Origin: Puniceicoccaceae bacterium
Lineage (GTDB): Bacteria; Verrucomicrobiota; Verrucomicrobiia; Opitutales; Oceanipulchritudinaceae
Length of the DNA: 64,000 nucleotides
Assembly: GCA_040830765.1 (NCBI GenBank)
Contig: JBFOMH010000007.1
Coordinates: 1 to 64,000 of the forward strand
Reading direction: 5' to 3'
This document shows, in pieces, positions 24,001 to 33,000 of the stretch. Position numbers: made by a program. Position 1 is the stretch's first letter, and the number at the start of each line of letters is the position of its first letter.

Positions 24001-27000
24001 TTGCAAGGCCCCATGGACTGGTTGCGGCTTCCCATAATCGCAATTCCCTGCTGCCGGAATAGCGACCACTTTGCATGGGGGGCGGTGCAAATATGGTCTT
24101 GCGCCCGTTTGAGTAGAGAGAGGGAAAACCCTTACACCCAAATAAAGTATGGGTCAATATAATTTTACTTTAAAGTAAATTAACCTTGCCGCTCAGACCA
24201 TGCTCTTCCCGGAAAACCCGGTCGCTTCATCGAGCCAGGTGTCCATTTTCATGACATTTTTCCGGGACAGGAAAGCGACCCGCTGGGCCTTCCACTGGAC
24301 AAATCCGTTAACAAAGCGACCGACCAGTCGGGCTCCTGGAATCCCTTTCTGCATACTCCAAGTGAACAGGGAAACCAGCCACTTGGGAGCAAAGCGGTGC
24401 AGTAATTCGTCCTCACAACTGACAAAGGCGATGGCGGATCCGGGATCTCCCTGACGTCCGGAACGTCCAAAAAGCTGCCGATCAATGCGTCCCGCCTCGT
24501 GGCGTTCGGTGGCGATAACATGGAGGCCTCCAAGCTCTGAAACACCCTCCCCGAGCTCGATATCGGTCCCGCGCCCGGCCATGTTGGTGGCGATGGTTAT
24601 GGTGCCGGGAGCCCCTGCGTTAGCGATGATCTTGGCTTCCTGACGGTCATTGAGGGCATTGAGCAGGTTGATCTTGAAACCCTCCGAATGGAGCCGCTTG
24701 GCAAGGACCTGGCTGGTGAAGATGTTCCGGGTCCCAACGAGGACCGGGCGGCCGGCCTGATGGCAGGCCTCAACCTCGCTGATGACCGCATCCAGCTTGG
24801 ACTCCAGGGTCCCGTACATCTGGTCCGTAAGGTGGCGCCGGACCACCGCACGGTTGGTCGGAATGCGGATGACCGGGAGATGATAGGTATACCAGAGCTC
24901 GGAAGCGGCCTCCCAGGCCGTCCCGGTCATGCCGGAAAGCTTGCTGTAGAGCCGGAAATAACGCTGGAAACTGAGCCGGGCCAGTGTCTGGTCGACCGGC
25001 GAGAGCGGTACCCCTTCCTTGGCCTCAATGGCCTGATGGAGACCATGGCGCCATTTGCGGTTGGGCATCATCCGACCGGTGAATTCATCAACGATAACCA
25101 CCTTGTTCTGCTGGACAACATACTGCTTCCCGCGCTTGAAAAACTCCTTTGCATTGAGGGTCTGCTCAACCAGCTCAAAGGGGCGTGAAGCCCCTCTCCA
25201 GCGTTCCGGGAGGAGGTCCAGTTTCGACTCCACAACCCGCCTGCCAGTGCTGGTCAGGGTCACTTCCTTGTAGCGGACATCCACCTTGTAATGCTCGTCC
25301 GGTTTCATCTGGTAAGCGATGTCCCAGACCACCTTGTAGACCTGATGGAGGAGGTTGTTGTCCGTAGGAGCAGAGATAATGAGGGGCGTTACGGCTTCAT
25401 CAATGAGGACACTGTCCGCCTCGTCGACAATCGCGGTGTGCATGCCGCGCATGACCAGGCCATCCGCGGCCTTGTAGGGGTGCAGATGCCGGTCCAGAAG
25501 GCGCTGGGTCGGATGTTGCTTGTCTCCGAGCTTGAGCCGGTCGCGGAGGAAGTCGGCCACAACCTCCTTACTGGTGGTGTAGGTCACGTCCTTGGCGTAG
25601 CCACGGGCCCGGTCTTCCGGTTGCAGGATACTGGTCACGAAGCCTACGGACACGCCGCAAAACCCATAGAGCTCTTCAAACCATTCCGCATCCCGCTTGG
25701 CGAGATAGTCATTGACCGTAATGATATGGCAAGGACGCCCGGTCCATCCGGCAAGGACGGCTGCCAGGGCGGCGGTCAGGGTCTTACCTTCCCCAGTTGC
25801 CATCTCGGCCAAATAGCCCTGGTGAAGGGCCAGCGCCCCCATGATCTGGACTGTAAAGGGGCGCATCCCGGTTACCCGCTGGGCAGCTTCACGGATGGCC
25901 GCCAAGGCATCCGGAATCGCCTCCTCGACATCCTTTCCGGCCCGCCTGAACTGCTCCTTGAACTCACCCAAGTGCTTCTGCAGGGCCTGGTCGGAAAGAA
26001 ACTTCCAGTCTTCCTCCTTGGAATCAACCAGTTCGGCTATCCGGCGCAAGTTGCGCTGAATGCCCCTGCGGCGCTGATAGCGACCGATGAGGGAATCAAC
26101 GAGGCGATCCAGCCCGGTGGGTGGTTCCTTGACCTGCGGTATCTGACAAGGCCGGTATTCCTGGACGATCGTGCTCATATCCCATATCGACGCTGGAGCA
26201 ACTGGCGGAGCTTGCGGATCCATTGCCGGAGCAAAGGTTCCCTTGGTAAATCATATCGGATGCGGCCACCTCTCCCATGGTAAACCGTCACCCCGTCGAG
26301 CTCGACAAACTGCGACCGCACCTCGAAAAACGGCTCCGATGCCCGAGTCCCGGACTGGTCCTGCAGGTCAACGGCGACCTCCCCTCCCCCGGCCCATCCA
26401 AGGGCAGGTGACGGCAGGTTCTGCCGGTCAGCTGGAATCACATGGTGGGAGGCAATGCCCAGGGTCTCGCCGGCCTGCCCGTAAATCTTCACCTCGGACT
26501 GCTGAATCTCGTTTGTGAAAAGGCGCGAGGCCTCATTCTGGGAAACGATCGAGGAAAAATAATAATTGGAATTGTCGATCAGCTGACCCAGCGCGAAACC
26601 CCGTTCAAGCCAGGATCCGACGTAGTCATCGATTTCCGGGGAAACCCAGACACCGGCGTGGGGGGCCCGGACGATCAGTGCATCGCGTGCCTCATAAAGG
26701 CGATCGAGGAGCTTTTGGGTGGCCTCGATCCGGCTTTCCAGGGCCTTGATATCGGCTGTTGATTCCCTCAGGGCCCGCCGGAGCATGGCATCCGTTCCAT
26801 CGAGTTGGGCCTGTGCGCCCTCAATCCGCAATTCCAGTTCCTTGTTGTAGAGCCTGATCAAGGGATCCCCGGCGACAACTTGCCCACCATCGGGAACAAA
26901 GACCTCAACCACCTCACCGGAAACATCCGGCGCCACGACGGAATAGGTTTCCGCCAGCATTACCCCCGGAGAGCGAAACCGGTTCGGGAAGGGAATCACA

Positions 27001-30000: not shown

Positions 30001-33000
30001 GCCACAACCTTGCGCCAGCCCGTTCCCTCGTTCTTTCGCTTGCGCACAACGAGACCGAACCGGGCCATGCCAATCGTCACAAGGGCATCGATATAGGTTT
30101 GCCAGAAAACTGCCGGAGGACCGGAAAAACGCCTTAGTGAAGCCAGCTGTTCAAGGGCATCCCGGAAGGTGCCGGATTGTTCGTGTTCACTGGACATGAT
30201 TAATCCTCCAGGCTGAGTTTGAGGAAGCCGCCCTCACCGGGACGCACGGCTCCACCGGGATTGGCAAAGATGGCCTTTATCCGCAGCAGGCCGCTGGCGG
30301 AGTCAACAACCGGGGAGATGAAGACAATCTCCCCGTTCATGCTGGAATTACCTGATGCTTGACCCAATTCGGAGATAAATCCCACCGTGTCTCCCATCGA
30401 CAATCGGCTGGCCAGAGCGGGATCGATATTGGCCACACAGTAGAATTGGCGTGTATCGACGATACGCATCAGGATTTGCGGAGGCTCGCAATATTCACCC
30501 ACCTCTATTGGCAGGCGGGTAACCGTTCCCGTAAACGGTGCCCGGAGTCGCTTCTTTTCCAGCGAGTCCTTGGCCAGGTCCAGTTCGATGACCGAGATCT
30601 GGTAATCACTGCGGGCCTCATCAACCTCCTCCATGGAAATCGAACTGGTTTTCTCCAGCAGCATTTCCGATCGCTCGAGGGTGGCCTTGAGGTTGGCTAC
30701 GAGCACTTCCCGTCGCTTGATATCCAACTCCTCGGCGATGGAGTCCAGCTCGACAATGACTGTTCCCTTCTCCACGAAACTGCCTTCACCGTGCCGGATG
30801 GCACTGACAGTGCCCGGTAGAGTGGATGTCATTTCCACGTCCGCTACCGCTTCTGTCAGGCAGCGGATCGTTTTTGCTTCAAGCGTGCTAACGAATGTGG
30901 CTGCCGTCAAAACGACGAGGGAGAGGCTTCTTTTCAGGTTCCGTTGAGATATCATAATTGTCTTCTTCCTGGTAGGGCTTGCGGTAGGATTTTACGGGCA
31001 GGGAATCCCAATCGACTCCGAGCCACGGTGTAGTGAAAGTGTCCTCCTGAAAGGCCACCGGGGCCTCCGCAGGGAGGCGGTCAAAGTCCGCCAGGCGGTA
31101 GTCCATGGCCGGGGTTTGCCGGTCTCCATTCCGGGCCCAGTAAGCGGTTCGCTCCTCGAGCTCCGCATAGTCCACCTCAAGGTTGCGCAGTTGCAGGATG
31201 CTTCCCGAAATCAATTGCAGTTCAAGGAGGGACCGCTGGTAATCGATTTCACTTTGCAACTGCTCCAAGCGGGCGGCAAAGAGCTCCTGCTCGGCCTCCA
31301 GTACGCTCCGGGCATCCATCCGGCCAATGTCCCGGCTTTGCATGCGGGTATCGAGAAGGCTGATCCGGAAATCAACCACCGATTCCATGCTTCGGGCGGT
31401 CGTGAAATTGGCATCGATTCGCTGTGCAGCCGTGTCACAGCCAACCTGGACCTGGGTAAAGAGACTGGCTTCCGTCCGCTCCGCCCGCATCAACCGCAAA
31501 TTGGCGGCGCGCTTTTCGTTGACGCCACGAACGTCACCCCAAAGCGGCACCCGGACAACGACGCCGACCGACCAGAGGGGAAAGTCATAGCTTTTGAGAT
31601 CCTCCCAGGATTCCTCCCACCAGCGGCCAAATCCGGATGAGCCCATGTCGGCCTTGAGGTTGACCTCGGGAAGCCGCTGGTTCTTCGCGTAACCAAGGCG
31701 GATTCGCTCCTGCTCAGTCTGGATTTTAGCCTTTAACAAATCAGGATTCATCGAGGAGGCGGTGAGCTTAATTTCATCGTAGACACTTTCGACCTCCTTC
31801 GATTCCGGAGAGTCGGTCACGATATAACCGACCTGATACTCCCGCGGAACGCCACCAAAATACGAGGCCAGGTTGTTCATCGCGTTCACCTGTTTCTGGA
31901 AGGACTCCCGTTCGCGCGAACGGCGCAGGGCCAGCCCCGCTTCCGCCTCAAGGACATCGAGCTTGGCACCCCGACCGGCATCAAAACTGGCCCGGCTGTC
32001 TTCAAGGATGGTTGCTGAGAGCGCTACCGATTCCCGACTCAGCTTCAGTTCTTCCTGTGCATAATACAAATCCCAGTAGGCCAGTTCCGCCTCGGCGACA
32101 ACCGTCATCAACTCGCGACGATAGTCCTGGAAAGCGATCTCTGATTGGCGCGCAGCCATCCGCAGGGAGGCCAGGTTGGAGGCAAAGCCAAATCCCTTTA
32201 GGAGCGGTTGCTCGACCGTCAGTCCCCAGCGGGTCTGGTAGCCCTCTTGCGGATTGTCACTCGTGATCGGTGCATTCCGGTAAATATCATCCCCGAAAAC
32301 ACCGAGTTGCACCCGGGTGCCAAGGGGTGTCCTCACCTCCACCGCGGAACTCAGGCGCCAGGTGTTTTCCTCGTAGATGTCAGGATAAAAGTCCCTGTCC
32401 TCATTCCCGTTGATGGTATTCTGGACCCAGTTGGTGATACGGGTTTCCGGATCCGTGTTCGGTTGCCTCCGGTCAACGAACTCTGCACTGGAAACAAGGG
32501 CCGGCTCGAAGGCACCCATTTCCGCGCTTCGCTGCCGCCGCGCGGCATGAAAGCCCAACAGGCGGGCCTGCACGGACTCATTATAGTCGACCACGCGCTG
32601 CATGTATTCTTCCAGCGACAAGTGGTCATTCGTACCATACCGCGGTTCCAAGGACATCCGCTGCTCCTCCATTGTCGAAGCAGAAAGGGTGATGTTGGAA
32701 ACTAACAGGCAAAGCAGGACGGGGCCTATACCCCATACAGGACACAGAAAACACCTCATTTAAGCATTCAAGACGATACCGGGAATCGAATCAAGAACGA
32801 AGTGAGGCCATTACCAGCAGGCATCATACACGCCATTAGCAGTCTTAAAATGGAGATTTCAGCTGCTATTCAGGTAAAAATCAGTCCTTAACCCGTGTTT
32901 TACGGCCCGTACGGCGAGTAGGTAACCGGATACTCCGGGATACTCACATGGTAATGGCCTTCCAGGAATGTGGCGATATCCATCAGCTGGCCGGTTGTCA

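Follow-up and report, generated by a model that had tools for sequence, protein, structure and literature searches.

The window analysed here, the first 64,000 nucleotides of contig JBFOMH010000007.1 of a Puniceicoccaceae bacterium, holds two genes for giant proteins with an N-terminal LEPR-XLL tag directly next to a compact cassette of five genes. This arrangement raises the question of whether the cassette handles the giants, and by which route such proteins would leave the cell. Proposals that a LEPR-type tag serves as an export signal date from 2004 and 2021, and the planctomycete 'cell surface signal peptide' corresponds to PF07595 in Pfam (Studholme 2004, cited in PMC8567305). According to the available part of the latter paper, a related planctomycete motif occurs on 8 of the 10 longest T. 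immobilis proteins, and eight tagged proteins were found in the SDS (envelope) fraction only. Our literature searches retrieved no paper that joins the cassette to the LEPR-XLL tag.

The giant proteins and their leaders

Very long proteins were assigned to the LEPR-XLL group if their N-terminus matched NCBIfam NF012209 over about 24 residues with more than 17 bits. The two giants beside the cassette score 29.6 bits (residues 13-32) and 28.8 bits (residues 11-30), and both start with ...LEPRLLLS. The corresponding features are:

8223..24035, minus strand: giant LEPR-XLL protein of 5270 aa (NF012209 3.3e-7; HemolysinCabind 2.5e-53)
23967..23990, minus strand: LEPRLLLS core of its leader, residues 16-23, within the predicted contact stretch 9-24
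2..7927, minus strand: second LEPR-XLL giant of >2642 aa, cut by the contig start, with the leader match at 7838-7897

The genome contains six LEPR-XLL frames of 2649 to 15026 aa, together about 134 kb, as an earlier note on this DNA had counted. The proteins have 0-4 Cys in 2642-15017 residues, a D+E content of 13-17.5% and RTX repeats; the 5270-aa giant is acidic, carries internal RTX calcium-binding repeats and has a single Cys, located in the leader. The maximum 15-residue hydropathy within its first 60 residues is 1.2, in agreement with the earlier claim that the leaders lack a hydrophobic Sec core. Models of type I C-terminal targeting signals, which are poorly modelled, gave no match in the last 1270 residues of this protein, and PF07595 touched four of the six leaders, only below threshold (E 0.04-0.2). 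No HlyB-type ABC protein above the cut-off was found in the 97%-complete genome; the best TIGR01846 match, which begins at model position 180, reached 350 of the required 725.55 bits.

A five-gene cassette without an ABC, RND or MFS pump

The cassette consists of five contiguous minus-strand genes (24193-32759), separated by 2-3 nt or overlapping, and is directly followed by the two giant genes:

30888..32759, minus strand: TolC-like outer-membrane factor, 623-aa ORF; annotated start 32672
30200..30955, minus strand: short periplasmic adaptor, 251 aa
28335..30197, minus strand: GAF-adaptor, 620 aa
26175..28331, minus strand: RRE-like/M50/adaptor fusion, 718 aa
28008..28295, minus strand: predicted RRE/PqqD-like winged-helix domain, residues 13-108 of the fusion
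27687..27701, minus strand: zinc site of the M50 domain, H211-E-F-G-H215, invariant in 25 family members
about 27393-27419, minus strand: second M50 motif N305/N307/P308/D313, invariant in 25 family members
24193..26223, minus strand: SecA-like ORF, 676 aa; 661 aa from Met16 at 26178 (24193..26178)

ORFs, gene packing and family matches thus agree with the order of genes described earlier, a SecA-like/M50-adaptor/HlyD/TolC cassette before two giants, and also with the claim that it includes no ABC, RND or MFS pump, as Pfam and NCBIfam profile searches gave no match to these families, nor to the C39 peptidase domain, in any of the five proteins. The earlier span of 24193..32672 holds for its start; the end is probably 32759, because an upstream ATG at that position supplies the TolC-like protein with a signal-peptide-like N-terminus (hydrophobic residues 3-21) that is missing from the annotated start at 32672. 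Two studies have RNA-library contigs that span the cassette with 100% identity; DNA carry-over is possible, and these contigs show neither transcripts nor strand.

The SecA-like protein matched SecA_DEAD (1e-101), P-loop_SecA (7.4e-56) and SecA_PP_bind (1.3e-28) in Pfam and retains the two nucleotide-binding domains along with the one for preprotein cross-linking. Its alignment to the SecA models (790-814 positions) ends near position 600, and its scores stay below the family cut-offs (636 vs 814 bits and 532 vs 930 bits). Pfam detected no SecA_SW (wing/scaffold) domain, the part of SecA that holds the SecY-inserting finger, and the C-terminal tail is missing as well. The housekeeping SecA, encoded on a separate contig, matches SecA_SW at 9.1e-53, and the alignment of the two proteins stops at its residue 758 of 1034. 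The protein is therefore a shortened SecA paralogue, as previously described, and also lacks a membrane helix, since no hydrophobic segment was seen in its hydropathy profile.

The best NCBIfam match of the M50 fusion is daptide_HExxH (NF041824; 8.2e-50, residues 21-406), at 170 bits below the cut-off of 300, followed by an RND_mfp match at residues 444-551; at least five strongly hydrophobic segments were found, so that both the domain composition and the minimum of five membrane helices given earlier were recovered. The HExxH and NxNPxxxxD motifs are invariant in 25 family members of 31-55% identity, and the length of 718 aa is kept in the family. In an AlphaFold model (pLDDT 84.4), the C-terminal half corresponds to an adaptor with an alpha-hairpin, matching AcrA, MexA and MacA at E values of about 1e-13. 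The N-terminal domain, which has no match in Pfam, was modelled separately (pLDDT 84.4) and aligned by VIA-align with the leader-bound lasso-peptide protein B1 (6jx3_B; Z 9.5, rmsd 3.0 over 84 residues), TbiB1 (Z 9.0) and PqqD (Z 8.6); Foldseek matches were weak (E 0.01-0.1). The models indicate that this domain folds like the leader-recognition elements (RREs) of RiPP systems.

The remaining three proteins are the TolC-like one and two adaptors. The TolC-like protein matched Pfam OEP in two stretches (2.8e-34) and TIGR01844 below its cut-off (3.9e-31, 108.5 of 225 bits), and the short adaptor matched TIGR01730 RND_mfp above the cut-off (5e-36) as well as HlyD_D23 and HlyD_3. The GAF-adaptor combines a cytoplasmic part with a GAF domain (7.6e-11, about residues 197-321), one membrane helix and a periplasmic HlyD-type adaptor (HlyD_3, 3.8e-18); its single strongly hydrophobic segment at 359-377 coincides with the one helix placed at about 359 before.

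Cassette and tag occur in the same genomes

The association between cassette and tag was determined in three separate samples. Among 300 other Verrucomicrobiota genomes of at least 90% completeness, a strong orthologue of the M50 fusion (at least 676 bits, with the next best score at 429) was present in 24. NF012209 matched in 22 of these 24, from 11 families, and in 10 of the 22 the match lay within 7 kb on the same contig. In the 276 genomes without orthologue, five had a match, all of them weak, with E values of 9.6e-4 or more in frames of 38-636 aa. The tag was likewise found in 8 of 13 Gammaproteobacteria with orthologue and 2 of 236 without (249 genomes), and in other phyla in 41 of 50 cassette-bearing genomes and none of 14 control genomes. 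All of this is comparative evidence, in which related genomes do not count as independent. The co-occurrence reported earlier thus reappeared in all three samples, often with both partners adjacent on one contig. Its description as 'one-to-one' applies roughly and per genome only: here six tagged proteins stand against one cassette, the cassette occurs without the tag in 2/24, 5/13 and 9/50 genomes, many of them fragmented assemblies, and weak tag matches occur in the 5/276 genomes without it.

At 80 loci from many phyla, the SecA-like gene was adjacent in at least 65, the GAF-adaptor in at least 71 and the TolC-like gene in at least 25, and an ORF with the LEPR motif lay within the flank in at least 14; these counts are floors because many loci are short. 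A sister system shares the M50-adaptor core, lies beside large proteins with a different leader (LEDRILFDGAA type) and lacks the GAF domain. At none of 20 sister loci was a SecA-like gene found within 8 kb, and 15 genomes with only the sister system had none at all, whereas all seven tested genomes with the orthologue have one. A SecA-like motor is therefore no general requirement of this type of machine.

Predicted binding of the leader by the M50 fusion

The leader of the 5270-aa giant was predicted in complex with the M50 fusion with a score of 0.68 (0.68, 0.69 and 0.68 in the individual runs), the best of three controls reaching 0.00. Of 157 solved complexes, 116 reach the pass mark used, compared with 2 of 215 mismatched pairs. 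The runs had at least 68% of their contacts in common, with a partner pLDDT of at least 47. Leader residues 9-24 were placed along the strand and helix of the RRE-like domain (residues 47-53 and 85-100 of the fusion) and at the active site (residues 208, 211-212, 215, 239-248, 305 and 311-316). The prediction, based on our own alignments, gave the leader a pLDDT of 47-50, and its pass may partly be explained by solved RRE-leader complexes. It suggests that the LEPR tag lies along the domain that binds leaders and reaches into the HExxH site, which is intact.

A possible export route and its alternatives

Taken together, the cassette is probably a dedicated, leader-guided and TolC-linked machine for export and processing of the LEPR-XLL proteins of this genome. 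The cytoplasmic RRE-like domain would take up the leader (...LExLEPRLLLS...) as an added strand and hand it to the membrane-embedded HExxH site, which probably cuts it off, like the C39 peptidases of peptidase-containing ABC exporters. The M50 fusion, GAF-adaptor and short adaptor would form three adaptors bridging to the TolC-like channel. The SecA-like ATPase, which appears to have kept the motor and preprotein clamp and lost the parts working with SecY, may supply the energy by pushing the unfolded, acidic and almost Cys-free chain, N-terminus first, through a putative inner-membrane passage; outside the cell, the RTX repeats may assist by pulling as calcium drives their folding. Literature searches retrieved no measured cleavage or export of LEPR-XLL proteins. 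None of the cassette components is an evident inner-membrane protein channel, which counts against this reading, as do the sister system without a SecA-like gene and the cassette genomes without a tag, and site-2 proteases are not known to act as conduits.

The missing channel-forming pump would be explained if the giants crossed the inner membrane by the general Sec pathway or another exporter, with the M50 fusion as leader peptidase or quality-control protease only, the adaptors and TolC acting from the periplasm and the SecA-like protein being a targeting or holding factor rather than a motor. This would also fit the SecA-free sister system and giants that reportedly stay in the periplasm of the epibiont until cells make contact (bioRxiv 10.64898/2026.03.19.712371, part of the text). 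However, the leader of the 5270-aa giant lacks a hydrophobic Sec-type core (maximum 1.2), the SecA-like protein lacks the wing/scaffold part and the predicted leader binding occurs on an RRE domain of cytoplasmic type, so that we consider such a two-step route unlikely.

M50 proteases are classic signalling proteases, and the cassette might accordingly serve regulated intramembrane proteolysis of the LEPR-XLL N-terminus in release, anchoring or signalling, with GAF as the sensor and the giants leaving by an unrelated route. That a GAF domain is present would agree with this, as would the regulatory role suggested for the GAF protein in the accessible text of Kamneva et al. (2015; PMC4452313). 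The operon, however, includes three adaptors, one with an AcrA-like hairpin, and a TolC-like gene, pointing to an envelope-spanning duct, and the genome has no HlyB-type ABC protein over the cut-off; a function restricted to processing or signalling is accordingly quite improbable. The RRE fold and the daptide leader peptidase as best NCBIfam match of the fusion suggest a further reading, in which a small RiPP-like peptide or other cargo would be what the cassette exports or matures, and the neighbouring giants would be a coincidence. As that match falls short of its cut-off (170 vs 300 bits), the association with LEPR-XLL holds at genome level in three samples, and the giant's own leader is predicted to bind the fusion in a complex that clears its controls, this appears hardly plausible.

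Comparison with known systems

The gene set has been described before by computer analysis as the 'Secondary SecA_DEAD' conserved locus, comprising a short SecA_DEAD protein, Peptidase_M50/HlyD, HlyD, GAF/HlyD and sometimes OEP proteins; its authors suggested that the SecA_DEAD protein is the ATPase and that the M50 protein might be a pore (Kamneva, Poudel & Ward 2015, PLoS One, PMC4452313). The cassette shows this composition, the short SecA_DEAD gene lying in one run with those for M50/HlyD, HlyD, GAF/HlyD and OEP proteins. The accessible text of that study names no substrate, does not contain the words 'LEPR', 'giant' or 'cargo' and describes no RRE-like domain. The present analysis adds the connection with the tag, the predicted docking of the leader and the sister system lacking SecA. 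The PF07595 and NF012209 sources describe an N-terminal tag of this kind (...LExLExRxLL...) on surface-type proteins of great length and, in the parts available, propose an export signal without naming the machinery. A recent preprint located two LEPRxLL giants from Chl. chlorochromatii in the partner cell and assigned a 'recently acquired' secA to the giants' co-expression cluster (bioRxiv 10.64898/2026.03.19.712371, part of the text).

Compared with SecA and SecA2 ATPases, the cassette paralogue has both the nucleotide-binding and preprotein domains, lacks SecA_SW and scores below the cut-offs. The RRE-fused site-2-type leader peptidases of RiPP systems (daptide, NF041824; YydH/LiaK, NF058609) share the HExxH membrane protease and the N-terminal leader-recognition fold with the M50 fusion. 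The latter differs in carrying a periplasmic adaptor, in presumed substrates of thousands of residues instead of small peptides, and in a context not of RiPP gene clusters but of adaptor, TolC-like, SecA-like and giant genes. In peptidase-containing ABC transporters (PCATs, e.g., of the colicin V type), a C39 domain fused to the ABC pump cuts the leader. The cassette would resemble them in that a protease within the export machine recognises an N-terminal leader and probably cuts it, but with an RRE-bearing M50 metalloprotease fused to an adaptor in place of C39-ABC.

Type I secretion systems (HlyB-HlyD-TolC, LapBCE) export RTX proteins and giant adhesins that are acidic and Cys-poor, carry RTX repeats and have no Sec signal. 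The cassette likewise has a TolC-family factor (OEP 2.8e-34) and HlyD-type adaptors in three proteins. However, it has a SecA-family ATPase and an M50 protease instead of a dedicated HlyB-type ABC transporter, and the presumed signal is N-terminal, unlike the C-terminal one of type I substrates. If our reading is true, LEPR-XLL giants would be recognised, trimmed and exported without the usual ABC pump.

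Gene content of the cassette

Five ORFs lie on the minus strand at 24193-32759, spaced by 2-3 nt or overlapping, and are followed by genes for giant proteins.

Features of the cassette and of the neighboring giant genes
24193-32759, minus strand: cassette of five ORFs, as follows
Cassette, TolC-like factor: Pfam OEP, 2.8e-34
Cassette, 251-aa adaptor: RND_mfp, 5e-36
Cassette, 620-aa protein: GAF and HlyD parts (Pfam, NCBIfam)
Cassette, 718-aa fusion: daptide intramembrane metalloprotease, 8.2e-50, residues 21-406; adaptor models, residues 444-551
Cassette, SecA paralogue: SecA_DEAD, preprotein cross-linking domain, second P-loop domain
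8223-24035, directly downstream of the cassette: gene of the 5270-aa giant, passing NF012209
2-7927, minus strand: second giant, cut by the contig start, passing NF012209

ORF, Pfam and NCBIfam analyses confirmed the five-gene set described in an earlier note, and also its claim that the cassette contains no ABC, RND or MFS pump, as none of the five proteins matched these families in Pfam or NCBIfam. The cassette occurs once in the genome, and a single housekeeping SecA is encoded on a different contig. The proposed shortening of the SecA paralogue was likewise borne out: the wing/scaffold domain, present in the housekeeping SecA (9.1e-53), had no Pfam match in the paralogue, and the alignment of the two proteins ends at residue 758 of the housekeeping frame of 1034 residues. 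Hydropathy analysis agreed with the earlier membrane-helix counts, giving at least five strongly hydrophobic segments for the fusion, one for the GAF protein and none for the SecA-like protein.

The likely start of the TolC-like ORF is 32759, not the annotated position 32672, since an in-frame ATG at the former adds a signal-peptide-like hydrophobic N-terminus (residues 3-21); the protein read from the annotated start is without a signal peptide. The shorter form would start MEEQRMSLEPRYG, and the 'LEPR' within this sequence is probably due to chance. Within 23800-24400, no sigma-70-like promoter was found, and the only terminator-like sites were two weak ones, both located in the SecA-like gene. 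Elsewhere in the window, a divergent gene pair at 42366-44540 (minus strand) and 44694-46799 (plus strand) encodes proteins in which multihaem cytochrome c domains are joined to membrane domains of the cytochrome b561 type, and a 1548-aa ORF at 37725-42371 (plus strand) had no Pfam match at E 0.01. DUF3467 and SapC were not matched by any of the scanned ORFs of the window.

Giant proteins and their N-terminal tag

Some of the longest bacterial proteins belong to the LEPR-XLL group; the longest tagged frame in the search of genomes from other phyla had 20892 aa. In the genome studied here, the earlier count of six LEPRLLLS-tagged giants held, with six tagged frames of 2649-15026 aa sharing an identical LE.LEPRLLLS core. 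Both giants of the window have a short basic N-terminal segment, after which comes ...LE.LEPRLLLS. A second conserved motif, G-I/L-F-D/E-x-x-D, is present in all six proteins about 50-70 residues from the start, where it follows an acidic low-complexity stretch (approximately 23800-23870 and 7720-7760 in the window; own-genome contigs C5, C6, C8 and C19). PF07595 matched four of the six leaders, in each case below threshold (E 0.04-0.2; cut-off 25.5 bits).

The giants are acidic and almost free of cysteine (0-4 Cys per 2642-15017 residues), and the sole Cys of the 5270-aa giant is leader residue 11. This protein contains internal RTX repeats and gave no match to type I C-terminal target models, and no HlyB-type ABC protein scored over the family cut-off in the genome, which is 97% complete. 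In the second giant (2-7927, minus strand), residues 296-346 weakly matched matrixin (Peptidase_M10), with 21.2 bits falling short of the cut-off of 24 (E 2.8e-4).

Association of tag and cassette

Among 300 other Verrucomicrobiota genomes of at least 90% completeness, a strong homologue of the fusion, hereafter called orthologue, was found in 24 (at least 676 bits; next best 429), and 27 matched NF012209 at an E of 0.01 or lower. Both occurred together in 22 genomes from 11 families, in 10 of these on one contig and at most 7 kb apart. The co-occurrence noted earlier was borne out in bulk for this phylum, 22 of the 24 orthologue genomes being tagged. The two cassette-bearing genomes that had no tag match (G281 and G169) are assemblies of 270-370 contigs, and the five genomes with a tag and no cassette all gave weak matches (E at least 9.6e-4; frames of 38-636 aa).

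The gammaproteobacterial sample comprised 249 genomes of unreported completeness around a cassette-bearing centre, itself excluded; of the 13 genomes whose orthologue includes the N-domain, 8 were tagged, as were 2 of the 236 others; G556, one of these two, has an intermediate fusion match of 470 bits. In further phyla, 41 of 50 cassette-bearing genomes and none of 14 controls carried the tag at E 0.001 or better. These 50 genomes were drawn from 80 collected loci by their non-Verrucomicrobiota titles, leaving out very short loci, L071, L074-L076, L079 and L080. Across the 80 loci, the SecA-like gene was adjacent in 65, the GAF-adaptor in 71 and the TolC-like gene in 25, and an ORF with the LEPR motif (strict regular expression) occurred in the flank of 14; these neighbor counts are floors, as many loci stop within a few kb. 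The association counts are descriptive, related genomes not being independent. There is good support for cassette and tag being functionally linked.

The protease fusion and predicted docking of the leader

The fusion family comprises 4468 cluster representatives at E 1e-30 or better, mostly of about 718 residues. H211, E212, H215, N305, N307, P308 and D313 are invariant in 25 members of 31-55% identity, indicating an intact M50 active site. In the AlphaFold model (pLDDT 84.4), an N-terminal strand-plus-three-helix domain is followed by a membrane part made of helices and then by the C-terminal adaptor, which has an alpha-hairpin and matches AcrA, MexA and MacA at E of about 1e-13. Pfam gave no match for the first 130 residues, and Foldseek returned weak matches (E 0.01-0.1) for the separately modelled N-terminal domain, so that its assignment as an RRE rests on VIA-align. 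In this comparison, the top ranks were RiPP leader-recognition domains: a leader-bound lasso-peptide B1 (Z 9.5, rmsd 3.0 over 84 of 85 residues), TbiB1 (Z 9.0) and PqqD (Z 8.6), with TigE, ThcOx, PbtF, MibB, MccB, LynD and NisB at lower ranks.

For complex prediction, fusion residues 1-445 (25-sequence alignment) were combined with residues 1-45 of the giant (six-leader alignment). The scores were 0.68, 0.69 and 0.68, and all three controls gave 0.00; 116 of 157 solved complexes reach the pass mark, as do 2 of 215 mismatched pairs, a calibration that is only rough here because self-made alignments were used. At least 68% of the contacts were common to the runs, and the leader had a pLDDT of 47-50. 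Leader residues 13-16 are predicted to contact the RRE-like domain (strand 48-52 and helix 85-100), and residues 16-24 the zinc site (208, 211-212, 215, 239-248, 305 and 311-316). Complexes of RREs with leaders have already been solved, and the pass may therefore partly reflect likeness to them.

A sister system lacking the SecA-like protein

The weaker fusion matches in the 300-genome Verrucomicrobiota sample formed a second class, found in 46 further genomes. Twenty such sister loci (L081-L100) combine a short adaptor, an HlyD adaptor without GAF and an M50-adaptor fusion, and none has a SecA-like gene within 8 kb. Genome-wide, a SecA-like gene was detected in none of 15 sister-only genomes and in all of 7 orthologue-bearing ones. 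Ten of the 20 loci contain ORFs with a leader of the type LE[DPSQ]R.[LM][FL]D.AA, an expression expected about 0.06 times per 19 kb by chance in the genome studied here. Examples are a frame exceeding 1500 aa with the N-terminus MYQLEDRILFDGAA and a DUF4347/Ig-domain protein of 2016 aa, behind which lies a TolC-like gene. The neighbors are large proteins with an N-terminal leader of the LEDRILFDGAA or LEPRMMFDGA type (e.g., L086:2-4534 and L097:11191-17241), which NF012209 does not detect.

As leader-bearing ORFs adjoin the sister loci too, both branches combine the protease-adaptor core with an N-terminal leader. Presence and absence of the SecA-like ATPase coincide with those of the GAF domain, and the two accompany the LEPR-XLL form of the leader; the SecA-like motor is not universal. 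These statements do not rest on G465, a gammaproteobacterial member of the sister class that is flagged unpublished.

Two further observations were made among sister-type genomes. In one genus, small ORFs (frames of 114-144 aa) with a leader-like LESRELFAAAA motif lie near the cassettes (L082:2044-2385, L082:2465-2872 and L087:18089-18520); if real, they would extend the leader beyond giant proteins. The sister-only Verrucomicrobiota genome G031 contains two full-length SecA-like frames of 929 and 960 aa on contigs C29 and C59; the housekeeping SecA may be truly duplicated in this genome, or the bin may be mixed.

RNA libraries and habitat

Two studies have RNA-labelled libraries with contigs that match the region 14001-33600, including the cassette, at 100% identity; one of these libraries is a mollusc metagenome metatranscriptome. 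One contig of 5176 bases covers 28107-33282, and another of 1417 bases runs from the 5' end of the giant gene into the SecA-like gene; such contigs show neither strand, level nor single transcripts, and DNA carry-over is possible. Gaps in the cover of the giant gene in some RNA runs are uninformative. A mollusc may host the organism, and since the DNA is labelled mollusc metagenome, the giants may serve contact with a host or partner.

Proposed export route and comparison with known systems

In the mechanism that we predict as the best reading of these data, the leader would be captured by the RRE domain of the fusion and cut by the M50 site, the chain would pass via the adaptors and TolC, driven by the SecA-like protein as its motor. 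A wider reading, which we doubt slightly more than we believe, is that of a separate double-membrane secretion class: an RRE-guided site-2 protease-adaptor with further adaptors and TolC would form the route, and a wingless SecA would thread the largest bacterial proteins known, starting at the N-terminus and possibly co-translationally. Under this tentative reading, the protease-adaptor core and not the ATPase would define the class, because the SecA-less sister branch has its own leader type, LEDRILFDGAA. With the co-occurrence across phyla and the predicted docking of the tag in the protease site, the question of export is open to direct experiments.

Parts of the proposed route have been described separately. 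Kamneva, Poudel and Ward (2015; PMC4452313) described the locus type and suggested an ATPase role for the SecA_DEAD protein and a pore role for the M50 protein; sections 16-18 name no substrate, and 'LEPR', 'giant' and 'cargo' are absent from the text. According to passages of PMC8567305 that cite Studholme (2004), the planctomycete motif has been proposed to be a signal for export; PMC8567305 reports the motif for 8 of the 10 longest proteins of T. immobilis. In excerpts of a preprint (10.64898/2026.03.19.712371), which reports Chl. chlorochromatii proteins of 20647 and 36806 aa, LEPRxLL is noted on two transferred giants said to be without known transport signals. TolC, SapC and a HlyD are proposed there for transport of the giants, and an acquired secA falls into the same co-expression cluster; in these excerpts, neither secA nor an M50 protein is tied to the tag. 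A search of literature other than subscription journals found no work joining the LEPR-XLL tag with parts of the cassette.

If confirmed, the system would be a secretion route with a SecA-family motor and TolC and no ABC pump, and would explain how megadalton adhesins and symbiosis factors are handled. Should export be co-translational, the need of classical type I secretion for finished synthesis before export would be avoided.
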